Origin: Octopus vulgaris
Lineage: Eukaryota
Direction: 5' to 3'
Length of the DNA: 64,000 nt
NCBI GenBank assembly: GCA_951406725.2
Contig: OX597819.1
Location: 79,298,001-79,362,000, forward strand
Below, one piece after another: positions 5,705 through 59,830 of this stretch (within the stretch, counting starts at the first letter, position 1; each line of letters begins with the position of its first letter). The translations under genes and the position numbers were made by a program. The notes below the pieces were generated by a model. That model was not told where the DNA came from. It searched no databases and saw only the letters and a program-made list of their open reading frames with translations.

Positions 5705-6340
5705 CATAGGTAGTGGTTGTGCAAAGGGTTGATGCGTTTTGAGCAATGGGCAGCCACAACAGGTTCGGTCAGCAGTGAACTATGAGCATGAGAACGTAGG
5801 CGAGGATCATTATCACTTTCCTCTAATCTTTTAAGGTTCGTGTAAAGAGATGCCATGTCTCCTCTGCAGACACTTTTGAAACGAAATGTGGCCGACCCTA
5901 TGTTCTTTTGATGGAGGCACATGACCAGGCCAGAGGAGGCGTCGTTGTAATAGCCCGAGGAGTTTTGGGATTTGCCAAAAATTGCAGGACTTCATTGCTA
6001 GTGACTTGATGTTCAGAATCTGTCTCAGGTTGCGTAGGTAGACGTCGTTGAAATCCCGCTCTTGTCTGGAGTGGATGCTCCAGGTTTCGCTGCTATGAAA
6101 CGGTGTGCTGAGAACCTAAGTTCCGTAGCCTGCAACCTCGGCGTGAGCCGTTAGCTTATTTTCTCCAAGTCTAGTGTTGAGGCTACTCTTTCAACACGCC
6201 TGTTGGTCTCAGACGTGAGAGGGAAGATGTCCGTGATGACAGAACCGAGTTATGTGGACTCATAGACTATCTCTAGCCGGCAATTGTTGACAGCAATGGT
6301 AGGTGAGTACTCGGCGTGCTTTACTATAACACTAAAGAAG
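5705..6340 (-). mobile_element. RTE-clade LINE, decayed RT C-terminal fragment
   Basis: Frameshifted peptides VLSTPFHSSETWSIHSRQER, YLRNLRQILNIK, LLWPGHV, FRFKSVCRGDMASL resemble the RTE RT thumb/C-terminus. Confidence 0.75.
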
Positions 6341-7864
6341 ATGCCAAATAGGAAGTGCGCAAACACACAACCCTGATTCAACCCACTGGAAATATCGAAG
6401 GATTCCAATCAAGAGTAATCAAACTGAATGATGCCTTTCATCCTTGTGTCTGTGTGGAATTAGTGAGTAACCGTAAAAAGGCATTATTGGTTTCTTTCGA
6501 TGTTATTAATCTTTACACCAACATTCCACATGACTATGGAATAAAAGCAATCAAATTCTAGTTGGAATGTACCCCGAGGTACTCCCGGAACGCAAAAATC
6601 AGATCTTTATAATTGAACCTTTAAAATTTATACTCCAGAACAATTATTTCCTATTTGATGACACCTACTATCGTCAAAATGTGGAATTGCGATGGGAAAG
6701 AAAGCAGCCCCTGTTCTTGTGAGCCTGATAATGGATTATTTTGAATTCACCATACATGAAGTGTCACTTACAAAAATATGGTTATCCATTTCACCATTAC
6801 ACGTGAGAAAGCTGGAAAAGATACCTGGATGACTGTTTTATCATTTGGAAGGAGACCATTGACAAACTTTTGGATTTCAAATCATCACTAAATGATATAA
6901 ATAGTAACATTCAATTCACAATGGAACATAGCAAAGAACAGCTCCTATTTCTGGATATTATGATAAAAAAGGAAGTCAACAACCAAATTATAACTGATAT
7001 CTATCATAATCCCACGGACTCGAAACAATATCTCCTCCTTAGCTCATGCCACCCAAAACTCATCCAAATAAATATCCCTTTAATTTGGCAAAAAGGATTT
7101 GCACAATAGTGTCTGATAGAACTATTTGGGACCTTCGTCTCCAGGACCTCAAAACAACACTAACTGAAAGACAATATCCACCCTTACTTATAGACGAAGG
7201 AATTAAGCCTGCCAAGAAATTAGACATAAAAACACTCAGGACAACAAAACATAACACCACACCTCATCTGAAAACACTGCTGTATATATATCAACTCACA
7301 ACCCTAGAAACAATGAGGCATACAACACTATCGTGAAAAGTCTCCCTTTACTAACCAGAGACCCCAAAATGAACAACATCAAATGAAAAAGCAATACAAA
7401 TCGCTGAAGAGACTTCTAACAAATGCGAAGCTTACACGACAACCACAAAACCAACGTTTAAAACATGTGAACGCCCAAACTGTGGAACATGCCCCAACCT
7501 ACTTGAAGGCTCGGATTTCTTTTTTCAAACAAGAAGAGAGGTTTACAATGAAAACCAACTTCACCTGTGCCCCTGAGAACCTAATTTATGTAATAATCTG
7601 TTCGGGTTGTGGACATCACTATATAGAACAGACAAGTATGACATTGAGACGGAGAACCACTCTACATAAAGAGCAGATCCGGTTCCCGCAATACAGATAA
7701 ATTCCTTTAAGTGAACACATAGAGAAATGTCCAGGCAACATCAAACCAAATTTCACAGTTTTCTCCTTCTACAAGTGTAAAGATACAACTTCTTTAAAAG
7801 AACGTTTAAATAAAGAAATTTTTTTCATCGAAAAATACAGAACACGTCTAAATATGCACGCATA
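6340..7864 (+). mobile_element. Penelope-like element, RT + GIY-YIG endonuclease pseudogene
   Basis: LVSFDVINLYTNIP, GIAMG, YLDDCFII, IQFTMEHSKEQLLFLDI, SCHPK, CxxPNCGTC, NLIYVIICSGCGHHYIEQTS; stops and frameshifts. Confidence 0.9.
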
Positions 7865-8865
7865 ACCAAATTTGATCTCTTTAAAGGAAAGAAAGTTTGT
7901 TTTACGTTTCGAAGACTGGGGAAAAGTCGCCAACAATCCAATTACATTTTGAAAATGTATATATATATTTTTTTTTCTAGTTTCAGCTCAGAGCTGCGCC
8001 CATGCTGATGCACCGCCGTTTATATATATATGTTTACGCAGGTACAAACCTATATATACACACACACGCAAACAATATCCTATACAGCGAAATGATCCTC
8101 GTGAAGATATGTTGCCTCCACATCTGGGGTGATGTTTGTCACACAAATTGATATCTTAGTCACATCCAGAGAAAAAGTCACTCGAATACTGACTTAAAAA
8201 CCATTCTCAGATTTGTTCCAGTCATTAGCACACACATGTGCTGTATCACCCCCAGGTGTTTCCTTCTTTTACTCTAATTATGTCCACTGTTCCTCGGAGC
8301 TAGCTGATTGCGAGTTACTTCGCCTCAGATGCTCTCAACCCGCTCGTTTCTCTTCCTTTCTGCCTCGATGATTTTGCATACAACTGCACGGACTCTGCAC
8401 TATCCATTACTTTCTGTACTCTCACCCAAGAACATCGGTCATCTCGAGAATCTCCTTCCCGCCGATGTCAACTTGCAAGTTTAAGCGGAATATTAATGGT
8501 AATAGTCTCACTAGCATCGGAAAACTTGCGAAACCACATATGCATATGCTTCTACCTTTATATTCGGCAACCTACCTACCTACCTACCTACCTACCTACC
8601 TACCTACCTACCTACCTACCTACCTACCTACATACCTACATAAATACATAGACACGCTAATATATCCATATAAGCATAAATTTTTATGTATATAAATTTA
8701 TTTCTAATAGTATATGAGAATTATCTATTAAGTAAATATTTGTATCTTTCATATTACCACACATGCATATACTTATGCATGTGTACATGCAATCATGCGA
8801 ATATACATTTGCATCAACAACATCAACCGACACATAAATACATAGTCATGCATACACACGTGTTC

Positions 8866-10464: not shown

Positions 10465-10803
10465 AGGAGTGGCTGTGTGGTAAGAAGCTTGCTTTCCAAC
10501 TTCATGGTCCCGGGTTCAGTCCCACTGCGTGGCACCATAAGCAAGTGTCTTCTTTTATAGCCTCGAGCCGACCAAAGCTTTGTGAGTGGATTTGGTTGAC
10601 GGAAACTGAAAGAAGCTCGTCGTATATATATGTGTGTCTTTGTTTGTCCCCACCACCATCGCTTGACCACTGATGTTGGCGTGTTTACGTCTCCGTATTT
10701 TAGCGGTTCGGTTAAAGAGACCGATAGAATAAGTACTAGGCTTACGAAGAATAAATCCTAGGGTCGATTTGTTCGACTAAATGACTGAAACAAGTAAAAG
10801 AAT
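10465..10803 (+). mobile_element. SINE family A, near full length
   Basis: GGAGTGGCTGTGTGGTAAG head to GACTGAAACAAGTAAAAG tail. Confidence 0.85.
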
Positions 10804-10806
10804 ATG

Positions 10807-10974
<168 letters not shown>

Positions 10975-11021
10975 TATATACATATATATATATACACACA
11001 CACATATATATATATATATAT

Positions 11022-11731
11022 AAACAATTGTCCCAAAATAATCTGTATTTTTGTTATTTTTTATTTGCCCTGTTCGTGTGAGCTAACAATCGTACTGACT
11101 TTCATGGGAAACATGTATTTTTGTGGTTGAAACCTATTGGATCTATTACTAGTGCTAGAGTGAGCCACATAGTGACCACTCTCTTATATTTATTTTTGTA
11201 TAAAATATTATAATATGTTATAAAATATTATAATAATCCAGGTTTCTCGGGGCACTGGGCCACTTGGTGTTGAATAGGTATACTATTAAATTAGTATCTA
11301 ATTCTCTCACCCTTATTAATTAATTATAATTATGCTGCATTTATTTCTAAATGTAGTATCTGTTTCCGTGAAAGTTTGGCGCGCTGTTGGTAGGGGCATT
11401 TGAATTATAACGTCGGATGTAATCAATTGAACCACACGTGTATTTATCGTTATGGTAAAATCTGGCGTGTAATTGAGTGGATTTCATCCAGATAGTTTTG
11501 GCTGAGGAGCTACAAGTGAGTTATTGTGAGTAAAATTACATTTAATTCATTAATAGCGAAACAATTGTCCCAAAATAATCTGTATTTTTGTTATTTTTTA
11601 TTTGCCCTGTTCGTGTGAGCTAACAATCGTACTGACTTTCATGGGAAACATGTATTTTTTTGGTTGAAACCTATTGGATCTATTACTAGTGCTAGAGTGA
11701 GCCACATAGTGACCACTCTCTTATATTTATT
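11022..11731 (+). mobile_element. Non-autonomous hammerhead retroelement (retrozyme/Penelope-derived) with 173-bp terminal direct repeats
   Basis: 11022-11194 equals 11559-11731 except for one substitution (period 537); flanked by (TA)n; contains an intact hammerhead; no ORF. Confidence 0.75.
11496..11575 (+). ncRNA. Type I hammerhead ribozyme (intact core)
   Basis: Stem I TTTTGG/CCAAAA; CTGAGGA 11502-11508; stem II GCTA/TAGC with extension; GAAA 11558-11561; stem III palindrome ACAATTGT; predicted cleavage after GTC at 11569. Confidence 0.85.
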
Positions 11732-11733
11732 AT

Positions 11734-11778
<45 letters not shown>

Positions 11779-11780
<2 letters not shown>

Positions 11781-11935
11781 GACGGTCTTCTTTCATTTCC
11801 CGTCTACTAAATCCACTCACTAGGATTTGGTCGGCCCGTGGCTATAGAAGAAGATACTTGTCCACGTAGTGGGACTGAACCTGAAACCATGTGGCTAGGA
11901 TGCAAGCTTCTTACTATGCGGCCACAAATGCGGCT
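11779..11935 (-). mobile_element. SINE family A, 5' half
   Basis: Matches the family A head/core. Confidence 0.7.
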
Positions 11936-15299: not shown

Positions 15300-16980
15300 A
15301 CCTCTGTCTGATTCCTTCTCCTACAAATACCCCTAGGTAGTTGTAGCTCTCCGCTGGTTCTATTTCCTTTATGACATTCTGCTGGTCAAGATTAACATTG
15401 GCTGTTTGTCATTTTTCCTTTGATAAAGGTAGCTCTTGCACACTTATCGAGACCAGATTGCACCCTGATGTCGTCACTGAATTGTTTAACAATCGCTAGT
15501 AAGCCCTGTAGTTGTTGGTCATTTTTCGCAAAGGGCTTTAAATCATCCATGTAACTGAGATGATTTATATTTTTATCAATCATTTTTTAACCGTATTGTA
15601 CATTATTGAGCAATGAGAGTGTTATTAAGGCTGGACAAAAGAGGAGAGGTGATAGAGAATCACCCTGGAAAATGCCACATGAAATTCTTGCATCTCCAGC
15701 ATTAAGAGATTCCTTGTCACTGTTCAAAGTCAGGGTGGTTCTCCAATATCTCATACTTACACACAAGAACTTTCGCAAATCAGGTGCTATTTGCTACATT
15801 TCCAGACATTTCTTAATCCAGCTATGTGGTACGCTATCAAAAGCTTTTTTATAGTCTATCTAGGCTATCGACAAGTTTTTGTGTCGTTTATGACAATTTT
15901 CCAAGACCATCTTATTGATGAGTAGCTGATCTTTACAATCATAAGATCTACATTTACATCCTTTTTGCTCATTAGGAAATATGCCAGTTTCTATTAAAAA
16001 AAACTATAGGTATATTCATTGAAGACATGTTAGCATTTTATACATTGTTGTTAAGCAGGTTATGGGTCTATAATTTGTTTCTTCATTTTTTGGAAGTAGG
16101 AATGTTACACCATTAACTAGCCAAGAAGGAATCATTCTAGGTTGTTACAAAACATTGTTGTAAAGTTTTGTTAGTGGTTCATGGTTCTCTGGGAAGGCAT
16201 TCAACCAGGATTAAGGAATTTTATCCTTTCATGGAGACTTCCATTTGCTTAATTCCCTGAGATTATATCTTACGTCCTCTACCTTGATACCCTCCCACTT
16301 TTACTCTTCTAAGGAGTCTAAGTCTGTAAATATTTTATCAATCCAAGGGGCCTTTTCATTGTGTGTATTTTCTTCAGCCCAAATTTTATTCCAAAATTCC
16401 TGCACTTCTTCTTTTGATGGGACAGACTTTACTGTAACTGGTATTTTCCTTATCTTCTTGTAAAAATTTCTTTATTTTTGAACATGTTGTTGTCCTTGAA
16501 GAATCTAATACACTTTTCATACCTTGATATGCGGGCATCTTTAGCACATACCTTTTGCTTGATGGTTTCTATGGTGGTATCAATGTCAAATATGGTTTTC
16601 ATATAGTCTTGTCTAACTTAAGGTTTTTTAAACATTCTATGTCAGACCTAAGTAGCTTAATTTGGTGTTGAATACGCTCTTGCCAAGTAGGCTTTTTGTG
16701 GGAATGTTGTCGTTTTCTAAGCTTTTCACCACATAAAATCGTTGAGATGCATAGTACAGGTGGTTGAGATCTGTAATATCAACATTATTAGCTGAAAATA
16801 TATCCTTAAGTGCAAGGCGGATTTTGCCAATTATTTTCAGGTTTTGGTTAGAACTGCAAATTTTTGGGAGAGTGTCGCGTTCTTTTATACTTGTTTCTTT
16901 AATTTTCAGCCATTCAATCATGATTTTATTTTTTAGATCATTTACTTCTGTTGAGTCAATTTCTGTGTGATTTTCTTCGT
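15300..16980 (-). mobile_element. R4/Dong-like (REL endonuclease) LINE, N-terminal + RT pseudogene
   Basis: IDYKKAFDSVPHSWI, GIFQGDSLSPLLFC, HLSYMDDLKPFAKN, GLDKCARATF; frameshifted. Confidence 0.88.
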
Positions 16981-16985
16981 TATTA

Positions 16986-17057
<72 letters not shown>

Positions 17058-17289
17058 GACAGAAAGAAGAGCGCAATGCGATTTGTAATTGATTGTTTAT
17101 GTAATGGTTTGAACGATATTATGACATATCATCTTTCCTCCTCAGGTTGAAAATTTAATATGAAAATGAAAACAATCGCAGAAACACAGAAATTCAAAAT
17201 ATAAGCGAGGAACAACGACAACAACAACAACAACAACAACAATAAGAACAGCAGCAGCAACAACAACAACAACAATTATAATAACCATA

Positions 17290-18602: not shown

Positions 18603-19169
18603 TTGGGTTGTCCGGAAAGTTCATGCCGATTTTTAAAGGAAAGAAAAAGGTCAATTAATACTTGCCATTACATTTTAAATCAACCAAATACGAACCATTT
18701 TGTTGTACAATGTGTTTCCATCTTTCCTTTAACTTGAAAATACCACTCTCCCAGAACTGAGATGGTTTCATGGCAAAGAATTCATCAAGGTATCTTTTTA
18801 CGTCATCCAAGGAATTGAAATTTTTACCATTAAGACTATTCTGTAGAGATCTGAATAAGTGGAAATCCGAAGGAGCAATATCTGGTGAATATGGAGGGTG
18901 GGGTAACACATCCCAGCCGAGCTGCAGCAATTTTTGTCTGGTTCCCAAAGCATCAAGTGCCGAAAATGAACTTTCTTATCTTCCATTTTAAAGGGTTACA
19001 GAATTAACACAGATTATAGGAACATTAAACCTTCTTCCACGAAAAGATAGCTTAAACTGTGCTCTAAATTGAGGTATAGTCAAATCCTATTTCATGGACT
19101 CAACCATGTTCTAAAATATGTCGAAAGGTAAGCTACTATAAATCGGCACGAACTTTCCAGACAACCCAA
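18603..19169 (-). mobile_element. Mariner internal-deletion derivative with both TIRs and TA TSD
   Basis: TIR TTGGGTTGTC(C/T)GGAAAGTTC(A/G)TGCCGATT at both ends, TA at 18601 and 19170; MEDKKVHFRHLML start joined to WDVLPHPPYSPDIAPSDFHLF C-terminus. Confidence 0.93.
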
Positions 19170-19341
19170 TATTTTTGTGATCATGTAGATGTTGTACTAC
19201 ACTTTGACAATTTTTGATATCTTGTCATCTGAAGCAGCTGGAGATACGATAGTTTGACCGAAAGAACTGGTTATTGCAAGCAATAATAAATACGTATTTG
19301 ACCAAATTTGGACATACGACAGATTAACATAATAACAACGA

Positions 19342-19414
<73 letters not shown>

Positions 19415-19420
<6 letters not shown>

Positions 19421-19635
19421 GGAAGGTTCTGAGCGTTTTTAATTGCAAAAAGGGATAAAAATAATATTCCATCAGCATAAATTTGACTGGTTTTGAGGAG
19501 AAAAAGTTATCTAGCTGCATTTTGACTCCATCTAAATCGTTAAATGTTTTTCCTTGCGATGAGTTCTGTAGAGACAAAAACAAGTTGTAGTCGGATGGCA
19601 CAATATCAGGAGAATATGGCGGATGGGGTAAGATA
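19415..19635 (-). mobile_element. Mariner transposase 3' fragment
   Basis: HPPYSPDIVPSDYNLFLSLQN. Confidence 0.8.
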
Positions 19636-20326
19636 ATTGTAGACTTTCTCTCTTCCTTCCCTTATTCTCTCTCTCTCTCTCTCTTTCTCCTTCTCTCACA
19701 TTATGCTACTTCCCTTCTATCTGCTGCCCACACGTGAGCCTTAACTGATTTTCTGTCTTCTGCTTTTTCGCCACCGGACGCCTAGAGTGCTGGTCAGCTT
19801 TCTTTCCTCTCTTAATAATCCTATTTTTATATCCATTTGAGGAATTCTTTCAAGCGTTAATCCATCATTCTAGTATTCGGCCGAAAGGTGTTATTTATTG
19901 TCTTCGACTATCGTTTCAGATTACATTTGTCTACTTTCGTACGTCCACCTTCTGTCGTTTTGTTTGCCTGAGCCCTAATTCTTCGCAAATCTTGCGGGTG
20001 CCGCCAATATACGAAGTTCTCAGTCTTATCGTGAAGGGCACGACACTGGGTATTAGTGGTTTTGGTCGATAACTCATGAAGCATTAGGGCCCTTGTGTCT
20101 GTCCTACACGTACCTTTTGTAGTATTAAGTTACTGGCCGAAACCCATCAAAGTTATCAAAGTGACACACACACTTACACATACCACACACACATTATTGT
20201 AGAATAATTCTTACATAATTACACAGACACCAACGCATTTATATGTGGATATATAGATATGTAAACGCACACATATGTATGTATATATATGTATATATGT
20301 ACATATATGTACACACAGACACACAG

Positions 20327-24244: not shown

Positions 24245-25059
24245 TACTTACATTTGACGGATATTTGTCCTCATCTTTTTTGTTGTTAGTACAATGTTTC
24301 GGCTGATGTACTCTCCAGCCTTCATCAAGTGTCCTGGGGTAATTTTGAACCTGTGTTCTCATTTCTAAGGTGTTTTTCCGATGTTATTATTTTAATTCAG
24401 GTCACTGAATAATAATAATAATAGAACTCAGAATCCTAACCCTACGCCACATGCTCGTGGGCAATAATTTTAGGGCTTATAAATCTAATATTTTCCTATC
24501 TTTCCATAACACCAGTTCCCATATGCTACTCATATCCGCACTCGGTCTGCTCAGGAGGTTGTTGTGTCTTAACACATGTGTTGCCTCTTTTAGTTTTCGC
24601 ATTTTCCAGTGGTGTTCTCTGTCTATTATTTCAAATTCATCCCGCAGGGAGAAGTGGTCTCCGTTTTTCCATACATGATCAGCTATACCCGATTTATCGA
24701 TATCTCCTCGTGTCACAGCTTTGCGATGTTCCTCTACCCTTATTTTGAGGGGGTGGTATGTTTCGCCTTTGTATAACTTACCACAGCTGCATGGGATGGA
24801 GTACACTCAGTCTTTGGTCATATTCTCTTCTATTGGTGGTTTTACTCGAAGGAGATATTTGCGAAGTGTTGTATTACTCTTGAATACTGGTCTGATGTCG
24901 TATGGACCGCATATCTTTTGTATCTTTTCGGAGAGGCCTTTCATATAGGGTAGGCAGACTGTGGTCAGTTTATGGGTTTCATCCTCTCTTCTCTTCATAA
25001 TTGGAGTGGACAGTATCTTTTGGGGGTAGTTGTTACTTAATAGATTGTTACTTAGCTTG

Positions 25060-25062
<3 letters not shown>
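24245..25062 (-). mobile_element. Penelope-like element 3' part: GIY-YIG ORF end + 3' region with tRNA-like segment and hammerhead
   Basis: VCLPYMKGLSEKIQKIC, VYSIPCSCGKLYKGET, RKLKEA; downstream GACAC-TTGATGA-AGGCTG..CAGCC-GAAAC; bounded by (TA)n on both sides. Confidence 0.9.
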
Positions 25063-25096
<34 letters not shown>

Positions 25097-25197
25097 TTCT
25101 GACAACGCCAAACGCCAATAAACACACGCACTCATACCAAGCATATAAACGTGTCTTAGATTTCTTCATTAAACTCTAAATTCCTCCTCCTCCTTCC

Positions 25198-28252: not shown

Positions 28253-28334
28253 TATATATATATATATATATATATTTCGTTCTTGGATTTAGTCTGCAAG
28301 ATTCTTTATATGAGTTTGTGTGTTGAAGCATATT

Positions 28335-28493
28335 CTGTTGTGTCTGGGGAGAGTCATTCTCTTTTAGTGCCTTATTATTTAACACTCACCGGTAGAATTT
28401 TTAAAAAGTAAAATTTCCAAAAAGTAGAAATTCTACCGGTGAGTGTTAAATAATAAGGCACTAAAAGAGAATGACTCTCCCCAGACACAACAG
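28335..28493. repeat. Perfect 66-bp inverted repeat, 27-nt loop
   Basis: 28335-28400 is the exact reverse complement of 28428-28493. Confidence 0.95.
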
Positions 28494-28526
28494 TATATAT
28501 ATATATATATATATATACACATACGT

Positions 28527-28558
<32 letters not shown>

Positions 28559-28587
28559 GCATATATATATATACATACATACATACA

Positions 28588-29373
<786 letters not shown>

Positions 29374-29388
29374 TATGTATATATATAC

Positions 29389-29413
29389 CTGAAAGAAGCC
29401 CGTCGTATATATG

Positions 29414-29474
<61 letters not shown>

Positions 29475-33180: not shown

Positions 33181-33304
33181 GAGATATCCCTAATAATAGC
33201 CGTTAACGATAACTAACTATATATTCCAGTACAAGAGCTAGTTCCCATAATTTCAGAAATCGCATGGATTTTGACAATTACGCCTAATTACGGAGGGCGA
33301 GCGC

Positions 33305-33770
33305 TAAGCGGAGATAAGTGAAATTTCAATGTTACTATAAATCTGAATATGCTTCATGCACTTTCTAACTGGGGAACAAGTTACTCATTGCGTTTTGTCA
33401 TGGAAAATGTCTAGGTAGGTAGTGCTGCGAGCTGATCTAGGTGTATACACACCATTTGTCAACAAGCGAAATATATTCTCCGTGGCAAAACGCAGTCACT
33501 GGAAAAGCATGAGATGTAATCTCTTAATTCAGCTCGCAGTGTTGTCTGCTTAGTGTCTTTGATCGATGAAGAGCCAACCACTCCGAAATGTTAACATCTC
33601 ACTTTCTATGTAGGTGGCTTTGCGAACTGTTCTGGGTGTATACACATCATTTGTCAACAAGCGAAATATATTCTCAATGACAAACCTCAGTGAGTAGCTT
33701 GTTCCCCAGTTCGAACGTGCATCAAGCATATTCGTACTGGTAATAACATTACAATTACGTCTAAATCCAA
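33305..33770. mobile_element. MITE-like element with long imperfect inverted repeats and an internal direct repeat
   Basis: 33345-33402 vs 33675-33733 inverted; 33411-33496 vs 33606-33691 direct. Confidence 0.55.
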
Positions 33771-35283
33771 CTTTCACCGTCCACTCATACAACATTACAT
33801 CCAAATTCATCCCGTTTTATGCCGTATTTGTGATCTTTCCTCATTAATACTTCTTATTAACTACATATTTATCCCAATTGCTCTTCACTCACTTCTATCG
33901 GTTCGCTCTTTATGAACATGTTCAATTGATAATTTAAATCCATTCATTAAAACTGCTTTCTCTATTTTCTATAGCTCTACCTTGTTTATATACGACAAAT
34001 ATCTAGACGTCTACTACACACTGAAAAGCCCGTTTTAGAGAAATATCGAAGTAATTTTCACGTAAAACATTAAATTCTATTATACATACTAGTATACATA
34101 GAATCTATTATACATACATATAAACACTCACACACATTTATACATATATATGGATATATACATACATAGATATATTGTGCGTGTTTGTGCCGGTACATAC
34201 ATCACATACAAGCATACACACATATGTACAAAAGAGCTGTGTTTGTATGTATGTCACTGATAAACATGATTGTGAACTTGTGATGATAATTAAATGCCTA
34301 GTCATAAATTTCTATAGTATATATACACGCACACATTAATATGCACACAGACACACACACACACACACACACGTAATAAGATTTAAGGTGAAAAAGCACA
34401 GATATCTTGTTTGTGTAGATAAAGATTAGTTAATCCATTCTATCTTTAAACAATATTATATCAAGTGAACATATGTTTTTAGCTAAAAAAAACATATATT
34501 CACTGATTATCCCTCTTGAGCTATACTTTCCTGCATAACCGCAAAACTGTATCATACCTGATTCTGTGGAAGAGTAAATCAAAACCTTCTTATGATTTCA
34601 TAACATCGAGTCATGATTAGCGAAGCGAAACCGGTCGAATCTATACATATTGTAATGGATTAAATAATCTTAAATCGTATTTTACATTTACCAATTGGAA
34701 TCTCCCTTCGAATGTTTCCCCTATAAATATATAAATATATGTATGTGTGTTTGTGTGAGTATGTGATTGAGTGTGTGCTTACATGTATGTATATAAATGC
34801 ATACATATACTGATTATATATATGTATATGCTTTGAGATATGTACCTACATACGTATTCGCTGTCGAACTGTGCTTAGTTTGTATATTATTTAATAGAAA
34901 TGACAAGAAACATACGCTGGAGCGCTTCACTTTGAAAGCTATGTGAGAATATGAGAGAAATTATACTTAATCTATGAACAAGAGTTTTTACTGAATCTTG
35001 TGTTTATACATACATACATACATACATACATATACATACATACATACATACATACATACATACATACATAGTACATACATACATATAAACATACATAGTA
35101 CGTACATACAATACATACATACATACATACATACATGCCTACGTACAGACATACATACATACATAAAAACACACATACATTCCAATATACACATATTGCA
35201 CCTGTTCATATATGTGTATGCGAGCGTGTATGTATATATATATTTATTTATATGGACATATGTATGTATGGATGTATATATAC

Positions 35284-51479: not shown

Positions 51480-51857
51480 GAATGAAATCTTGGCTTACTG
51501 TTCTCAACACACTAATAATTATAGGCACGACCTTTACAATTCGCATGCTCCAAATTCTTCCTATTTCGAACTTTTAGGGATTGTATATATTTTTTGTTGC
51601 TTTTCTTCCTATTTCGAACTTTTAGGGATTGTATATATTTTTTGTTGCGTTTCTTCCTCTTTTGTTTCGACTCTGGAATCAAACGGACATGATGGCTCTA
51701 TAAGTAAGCAACTTCGCTTTTCCTTATCTGCAACCTTTATGTCTGGTCTATCATTTTCTAATTTCTTTTCCGTTTGAATAGGAAAGTCCCACAAAATCTT
51801 ACATTTCTCCGACTCCAGTACTCTTTCAACGCGATGATTGTACCACGTGTTTCCAGA
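51480..51857 (-). mobile_element. R4/Dong-like LINE REL endonuclease fragment
   Basis: KILWDFPIQT, RPDIKVADK..CLLIEPSCPFD, VVPIIISVL. Confidence 0.85.
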
Positions 51858-51953
51858 TTCTTCTTCTTCTTCTTCTTCTTCTTCTTCTTCTTCTTCTTCT
51901 TCTTCTTCTTCTTCTTCTTCTTCTTCTTCTTCTTCTTCTTCTTCTTCTTCTTC
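51858..51953. repeat. (TTC)n microsatellite
   Basis: Direct reading. Confidence 0.98.
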
Positions 51954-52319
51954 TAGTTTATTTGTCAAAGTTTTTTCGTCACACATACTACGACCTCTTC
52001 AGTGGTTTCCCTGTTCCACGTATCTCCTCTTGTCCTGTCTATTCCGTTTTGTCTTTTCTATTTCCAAATATAACAAAATCTATTTCATCATACGATTTCA
52101 CATCAAGCATCTGACAATGATTTTTGCATCTCTTTGCATCGAGGGTATTATTATTTGACATGCATATTGTCACACTTAAAGTTTAGTGTCACCATTATTG
52201 TTGTTGTTGTAGTTGTTGCTCTTATTGTCTAGGCTAATGCTTCAGGTAATTGTAATAGTAAACGGGTGGTAGTGCAGTTATCGATGATTATATTGAAGTT
52301 GGAAAATAAATTGACAGTA

Positions 52320-58689: not shown

Positions 58690-59830
58690 TTATTGTATTT
58701 TAAAAGAATATGTTTGCAATGTTGAAGTGTTAAACATTAAAAAAATATTTTGTAATGTTCATAAAGTTCATTTGGCGCTTTCATACGTTCGTAGTAATCA
58801 TCAGATTTCAAAATGCATTAACTGACAGTTCAGTTCAGTGCTTGACAACAGTAGTAAAATGACTAACTTCTTCCTTTTTATACCTTTTAGAAGGCTCCGA
58901 GAAGCTGAATTTTTCGAAAACTGTTTTAATCAATCAGCATTCATCTTAAACGTCACGGTTTACCGGGCGCACCGATATTACAGGCATAGATCTCGCCTTT
59001 ATTTCAAATAATAAGCTTGTGGTTTACATGTAATGGTTTTATGAGTGAGTAAACTTTGTTGGTTTCGATCGTTTTTATTTCAATCGCTTGGAGTATTCTG
59101 TAATTTGTTTATATTCATATTTTAAAGATATTTTTTAATCCACATCATTAACTGGTTGCTATATTATTTCCGTTCAGAACCGTTTGGAAAATTTTAATAA
59201 ACCGTTTTTTTTTATCCTTCTTCCAACTTCACTTGTTTCATGTAGTTTGTGGGAAGGAAAAATTTGAAACATTTTTTGACCACGCGTCTCTATATGTTCA
59301 CTCAATGGAATTTGGCGAACATTAGTGTTCCGGATTTGTTGTCTGTGAACTCGTGAGCGTTCCGATAATGCATTCCTTGTCCGGCCAATGTATAGTTCCT
59401 CGCAATCAGGGCATTTAAAGCAGTAGATCAAATTTCTTCTTTCGCAATTCATATCTGCATTTGCGAAAATCTTTCCATTTTTTTGTTCTAATGGATGTAC
59501 CAGCATGTATGTATTGACACGTTCCACATCTGTTATCATTACACTTGGATACTGTAAATGATTTATCCTGTTTGTTCATGTTGGAGTTAGCCTTTGTTAA
59601 TATTACTTTATGTGGTTGCGTTTTGCTTAAGATAAGTGTTTGATTAGTTATTATGTTTTTCAGTTTTTCACTTTGTTTCATAATTGGCGAATTTGTTTTG
59701 ATGATGTTAAACATATTTTGGTGATGTGGATTGTGAGTTACTACAGATAGAATTGTGTTCCGTTGTCGGGTTCGTCTTTCTCGTGTTGCCCTAATTGTTC
59801 TATAGATATATCTTTTGCTCGTTGAGTTTT
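58690..59830 (-). mobile_element. Penelope-like element 3' part (GIY-YIG pseudogene + 3' region)
   Basis: CNDNRCGTCQYI, NLIYCFKCPDCEELYIGRT, IPLSEHIE; decayed CTGATGA..GAAA at 58771-58810. Confidence 0.85.

Follow-up and report, generated by a model that had tools for sequence, protein, structure and literature searches.

Introduction

Retrozymes are already known as a kind and are widespread in animals, and the octopus copy described here is likely one further member. For the metazoan non-LTR retrozymes, the text of Cervera and de la Pena (2020; PMC7229834) reports that RNA circles (in coral, mussel and axolotl), cleavage of dimers and closure by RtcB were demonstrated. As a monomer, the axolotl ribozyme HHR_Amex1 reached 6% cleavage in one hour, whereas its dimer cleaved far better (PMC7229834). 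The dimeric hammerhead chemistry was already known, and copying of a circle beyond unit length had been proposed in 2014 (Cervera and de la Pena, PMC4209133). Li, Clavereau and Pollet (2026; bioRxiv 10.64898/2026.07.22.740005) regarded retrozymes as non-autonomous derivatives of Penelope-like elements, defined 'active' copies as those with two or more complete hammerheads, suggested that monomers are unable to transpose, and reported cleavage in one of nine predicted dimers. As given in the text of the preprint, their 35 species (31 vertebrates, three insects and one coral) included no mollusc. Frangieh et al. (2024; PMC11167929) showed that the PAc protein, once purified, initiates at internal positions located downstream of the hammerhead, and mainly on uncleaved RNA.

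The main text of PMC7229834, as far as it was available, mentions neither octopus nor cephalopods, and the 2026 repeat annotation of Octopus vulgaris (text and supplement) mentions no ribozyme, hammerhead or retrozyme. No cephalopod retrozyme was found in print; the supplementary files of PMC7229834 or the 2026 preprint may bear on this point.

Anatomy of the insertion

The window, that is, the whole stretch of DNA analysed, comprised 64,000 nt of Octopus vulgaris. A preliminary description had reported within it a 173-bp direct repeat with one mismatch and a period of 537, located between (TA)n tracts, and had interpreted it as a young, ORF-less unit and candidate retrozyme. The repeat was confirmed by recomputed coordinates: positions 11022-11194 recur at 11559-11731 with 99.4% identity, the sole mismatch is a G at 11123 versus a T at 11660, and A/T-rich similarity makes the 3' edge indistinct as far as 11738. 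The insertion measures 710 nt and represents 1.32 head-to-tail copies of a 537-nt unit, with the following parts:

10802-11022, no strand, left (TA)n tract, written (AT)n, the inferred insertion target (repeat scan)
11022-11194, plus strand, upstream partial copy of 173 nt, pseudo-LTR-like (repeat comparison)
11033-11569, plus strand, predicted 537-nt monomer between both cut sites, ORF-less, 67% paired as a circle (folding)
11195-11494, plus strand, non-repeated body, predicted to pair with 11053-11113 and so to bring the monomer ends together (folding)
11184-11235 and 11317-11358, plus strand, A/T-rich hairpins inside or near the body (folding)
11559-11731, plus strand, downstream 173-nt copy with its 3' end 162 nt beyond the cut site (repeat comparison)
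11736-11776, no strand, right (TA)n tract (repeat scan)

The unit resembles retrozymes in its size of a few hundred nucleotides and its GC content of 32.8%, which is under 45-50%. The longest stop-to-stop frame around the closed unit was 57 aa in six frames, so that it is indeed ORF-less, and the ORF for RT and GIY-YIG domains of autonomous Penelope-like elements is absent from it. With its type I hammerhead, its low GC and a strongly self-paired unit without an ORF, the octopus sequence is like the metazoan non-LTR retrozymes as described in PMC7229834, whereas its 537 nt and long stem II set it apart from the invertebrate members reported there (about 170-400 nt). The length lies within the 51-972 bp range given in the preprint of Li et al. 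(2026), in which solo monomers are also described, and Penelope-like elements co-occur here as they do there.

The layout is that of a non-autonomous Penelope-like copy: a partial tandem forms the pseudo-LTR, the hammerhead is located in the repeated end, and the genomic 3' end is downstream of the cut site. The partial tandem, the hammerhead in the repeated end and an A/T-rich target are likewise described for the pseudo-LTR hammerheads of Penelope-like elements, as is the position of the 3' end (PMC4209133, PMC11167929), whereas the octopus unit lacks an RT/GIY-YIG ORF and no sequence link to an autonomous element was found. Non-autonomous Chlamys elements such as MRC1 (Craig et al., 2021; PMC8557442) are reported to share the absence of an ORF, the pseudo-LTRs, the head-to-tail arrangement and the microsatellite targets; unlike the octopus unit, Chlamys elements, which are from green algae, are described there as mostly without canonical hammerheads.

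The insertion is located in A/T-rich DNA and (TA)n, as described for Penelope-like elements, and a second family member also adjoins (TA)n; a target duplication is unreadable within such a tract. The 3' end of the downstream copy, in an A/T-rich stretch, may mark the start of reverse transcription. In unit coordinates, the upstream copy begins just past the foot of hammerhead stem II, 1-2 nt on its 3' side. Both ends of the insertion directly adjoin (TA)n, and no other piece of the unit was present within the 64-kb window. These two observations make it highly improbable that the locus is a remnant formed at the DNA level, in which deletion or unequal crossing-over would have shortened a tandem array without any recent retrotransposition here, even though unequal crossover has been proposed for retrozyme arrays in the text of the 2026 preprint (bioRxiv 2026.07.22.740005).

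The hammerhead ribozyme

A strict descriptor for type I hammerheads and folding identified one ribozyme in the unit:

11495-11576, plus strand, type I hammerhead with the cut after 11569 and a minimal palindromic stem III (strict descriptor and folding)
11495-11501 with 11570-11576, plus strand, stem I, 7 bp (hammerhead pairing)
11502-11508, plus strand, CUGAGGA core (hammerhead motif)
11509-11557, plus strand, stem II, 4 bp that extend into a hairpin of 49 nt (hammerhead pairing)
11558-11561, plus strand, GAAA, followed by C-AAUU-GUC up to the cut after 11569

When the complete window was dinucleotide-shuffled 10 times, the same descriptor never matched. The motif had been called fully canonical, and this held for the core only; stem III, by contrast, is of the weak form, with one C-G pair, A15.1-U16.1 and a palindromic loop. 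Rfam gave no match at the gathering score and, up to E 10, only simple-repeat or chance matches, none of them to a hammerhead model. Stem III of the axolotl HHR_Amex1 is described in the same way, as one pair with a palindromic tetraloop (PMC7229834).

One complete hammerhead is present at the locus. Because two complete tandem units are lacking, the locus is filed as a monomer-type, non-autonomous, Penelope-dependent copy that resembles a non-LTR retrozyme and is not 'active' by the two-hammerhead definition. It differs from the dimers and multimers reported in PMC7229834 in having 1.32 units and one core, and it differs from the active copies described in the preprint of Li et al. (2026) in combining one core with an upstream half-site that is predicted to be cleavable.

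The upstream half-site and predicted double cutting

The copy of the cut site at 11032 lies 11 nt into the upstream repeat, as had been stated earlier. Since this repeat begins just ahead of the palindrome, it keeps the full substrate strand of a hammerhead:

11024-11039, plus strand, half-hammerhead substrate strand, predicted first cut after 11032 (folding)
11024-11031, plus strand, palindrome of the half-site (folding)
11032, plus strand, C17 of the half-site (folding)
11033-11039, plus strand, stem I strand of the half-site (folding)

When RNA 11022-11580 was folded, the minimum free energy structure was an active hammerhead in which an 8-bp stem III joined the upstream strand to the downstream core, predicting a cut after 11032. 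The predicted probability of this long-range fold was 0.36-0.70 for transcript 3' ends at 11568-11650, 0.05-0.23 for a 3' end at 11680, and only 0.0002-0.003 (under 0.004) for the full-length transcript, these values being equilibrium predictions without tertiary contacts or proteins. At 18 C, the predicted value was 0.75. The collapse at full length implies that the first cut would require co-transcriptional cleavage. When only the body was shuffled (n = 30), the median probability was 0.003 and the maximum 0.67, compared with 0.70 for the native sequence, which was reached by 0 of 30 shuffles. In this model, the body appears to be arranged so as to bring both monomer ends together.

The cis fold needed for the cut after 11569 had a predicted probability of about 0.007, and the second cut would therefore be slow; two copies of the hammerhead were predicted to cofold as a double hammerhead. 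According to these folds, the single-core locus could release a 537-nt monomer by using one core at two sites. The half-site chemistry is that of the known dimeric hammerhead, and the addition could be that one core serves two sites and frees a monomer. If this is true, the rule of two complete hammerheads undercounts source loci.

A broader proposal, to which we give limited credence, is that a cephalopod retrozyme family may spread through 'one-and-a-half hammerhead' insertions. Stalling of the reverse transcriptase at the foot of stem II would leave the substrate strand, single-core copies would cut both ends in order during transcription and free a 537-nt circle, and monomers scored as dead would be the source loci.

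The family in public sequencing runs

Part of the stretch was contained in 20 of 24 listed sequencing runs (nine studies, four organism labels), none of which is on record as RNA. Four of the 24 runs (X1, X10, X15 and X21) were compared with one period of the unit, 11195-11731. X10 and X15 may be RNA, and neither is taken here as a sign of expression. Matching contigs numbered 3467 in X1, 65 in X10 and 128 in X15, and 30 of 30 bins were covered in each of these runs. Among the X1 contigs, 1113 had an identity of 99% or more and 1478 an identity of 95-99%, so that 2591 of 3467 reached at least 95%. The 537-nt unit is a family of close variants across the three runs. At 11 listed sites, and by indels, the window copy departed from the majority sequence in X1, and the family is therefore young. 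The interpretation as a young, ORF-less unit with a hammerhead, of the retrozyme or non-autonomous Penelope type, was supported, and in other runs the end of the unit is joined to its start.

Template editing from A to I, as a source of these differences, was rejected as unsupported: four of the 11 sites are A to G, two of them in the context favoured for such editing and two outside it.

An end-to-start joint, from 11731 to about 11202, was present in X1 (10 rows) and X15, and X10 contained the same junction as a loose end. Since two runs contain the joint and the third a matching loose end, the family unit of 537 nt is probably closed, as judged from sequence, and the stretch is probably not a randomly truncated piece of a Penelope element with an ORF. 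Under that alternative, the insertion would be the 5'-truncated terminal part (a pseudo-LTR partial tandem) of an ORF-bearing Penelope or Neptune element, and the period of 537 would reflect a one-off template jump. Penelope-like insertions are indeed described as mostly 5'-truncated partial tandems with pseudo-LTR hammerheads (PMC8557442, PMC4209133), the summed depth in X15 was higher at 11447-11662, and one contig in X15 (529 nt, depth 20.5) fitted the unit over only 85 nt and continued into unlike sequence. This origin is nevertheless improbable. Three runs, which carry two organism labels between them, contained the 11194/11195 junction, and its depth in X15 (1550 + 720) matched that of the neighbouring body (1606 in the main contig just downstream). 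The shares of records continuing into unlike sequence were only 0, 0.1 and 0.04 in the three runs, and no ORF was found to start after the 173-nt repeat.

Among the 18 loose ends listed (56 more exist), 16 looked by eye like local variants of the unit, one was the junction and one was (TA)n; no foreign coding sequence was seen by eye among these 18. The cut site was crossed by contigs at 11535-11600 in X10 and at 11535-11604 in X15. No piece spanning the whole unit, multimer or circle was found among the contigs of X1, X10 and X15, though both junctions close; contigs carry no information on strand, RNA ends or circularity. A further end was indicated by one contig:

11317-11332, plus strand, A/T-rich, candidate permuted 3' end, another family member running into (TA)n after 11328 (one X10 contig only)

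Both repeats of the window contain an A at 11136/11673, where the family depth reads T (100% in X10 and X15, 61% in X1). This shared state fits one template read twice.

In run X21, 0 of 12,895,792 raw DNA reads matched 11195-11731, a result that does not count as a test. X21 shares its species label with X1, in which the family is best represented, and 1-3 reads per copy would be expected for an assumed genome of 2.3-5 Gb, so that the zero would reflect either an animal without the family (patchy distribution) or a label that covers another species. Exact-pattern scans of metagenome, viral and prokaryote genome contigs gave no match to the unit.

The hammerhead core varied among family members at 11502-11524 in runs X1, X10 and X15, with A at position 7 and, in some members, C at position 4. 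Stem II was also variable in loose contig ends of the same runs. The summed depth in X15 at 11447-11662, around the hammerhead, was mostly several times higher than elsewhere, which reflects either overlapping variant contigs or a related family sharing that part. Summed contig depth was rejected as a gauge of copy number or expression.

Fold of the predicted circle

The predicted circle of 11033-11569 had a minimum free energy of -146.3 kcal/mol, with z = -6.5 against 60 shuffles and -5.0 against 20 shuffles. High self-pairing of this kind is a retrozyme feature; the score is only supportive, because five of 47 control windows also reached z <= -5 and the minus strand of the unit folded at z = -5.0. 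Sixteen substitutions from the other runs were placed on the predicted pairs, with positions 11337 and 11354 scored on their separate contigs: five were unpaired, six kept the pair and five broke it. For the pair 11337-11354, the window has G-U and the two X10 contigs have G-C or A-U, with the phase of these variants deduced from matching depths of 75.5 and 29.9.

Two control windows had low scores of their own. The 537-nt window at 28700 had a z of about -68, with long inverted repeats at 28527-29472 and 28330-28498, and the window 33259-33795 had a z of -9.4 and is not a simple repeat.

Candidate Penelope-like helpers

At 6300-7900 (plus strand) and 59174-59828 (minus strand), broken remnants of Penelope-like elements were located that contain a CX2-5CxxC linker and sequence of the GIY-YIG type. 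A Pfam GIY-YIG match was obtained for 59177-59575 (E = 2.4e-5), and RT motifs were seen by eye at 6300-7100. The linker is described for Neptune and Nematis, and a (TA)n bias is described in the same text (PMC8557442); from their sequence, the two linker-bearing remnants are Neptune-type candidates for the helper clade. A third remnant, a broken endonuclease end of Penelope/Poseidon type without the linker, was recognized by eye at 24477-25175 (minus strand). No likeness was found between the unit and the DNA 3' of the three Penelope remnants in the window, and protein searches with a Penelope remnant as query returned no scored match.

Frames resembling mariner transposases and LINEs were also seen by eye, all on the minus strand, at 18655-18975, 19197-19661, 16637-17128 and 51609-51998; Pfam gave no match for the three of these that were tested.

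Origin of the insertion

On balance, we lean towards the view that 1.32 copies of an ORF-less hammerhead unit were inserted in (TA)n by a Penelope-like enzyme that copied more than one turn of a circular RNA. What was observed is the anatomy, a family of closely similar variants and the joint from end to start; all steps at the RNA level, as well as the helper, are predicted or inferred. Target-primed reverse transcription would start in the A/T-rich stretch at 11731, which equals 11194 on the ring, and the enzyme would make one full turn plus 173 nt before halting at the foot of hammerhead stem II. If the new copy is transcribed, its single core, as soon as it has been made, would pair with the palindrome and the stem I strand upstream, forming the 8-bp stem III, and the RNA would be cut after 11032. 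The second cut, after 11569, would follow through the weak cis fold or through pairing with another transcript and free the 537-nt monomer, which a host ligase of the RtcB type would close into a circle.

The preliminary description had taken the 1.3-mer as the product of copying more than once around a 537-nt circle. Copying of more than one unit fits the locus; a circular template is not established by it, because a Penelope-type reverse transcriptase can start internally on linear tandem RNA and leave the same DNA. Reads joining 11569 to 11033 had been suggested as a test for circles and were discarded as non-diagnostic, since the genomic sequence from 11570 onward already repeats that from 11033 onward.

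A linear template is a serious, though clearly less probable, explanation. The same non-autonomous, Penelope-dependent unit would be copied from linear RNA that was transcribed from a tandem array and left uncleaved, with circles absent or a by-product; the reverse transcriptase would start internally, 162 nt past the hammerhead, and halt after 710 nt. Such a route agrees with the internal initiation downstream of the hammerhead in PMC11167929, where hammerhead mutants were without effect on insertion and no reads ended at the cut site. The weak stem III, with its improbable cis fold, also favours uncleaved RNA, and all contig results fit tandem DNA as well as circles. The predicted fold, however, has the body joining the monomer ends, which would suit a cleaved or circular monomer, and the repeats of an array would derive from different units, yet the state at 11136/11673 is common to both. 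The candidate second 3' end at 11328, from one contig, suggests flexible priming, but a multimer would also permit it.

The locus could serve as an inexpensive test case for two questions: the movement of animal retrozymes through circles, and the production of monomer by a copy with one core.

Other repeats in the window

A SINE-like family with a central (TA)n was present at 10465-10801 (plus strand), at 11771-11925 (minus strand) and at about 14 further places. This family presumably resembles the SINEs of octopus. The right flank of the insertion is the 5' half of one SINE-like copy, which runs into the (TA)n target. Elsewhere in the window, a direct duplication of about 790 nt was observed at 857-1640 and 1858-2648, the two copies being 89% alike with a period of about 1000 and containing triplet microsatellites.
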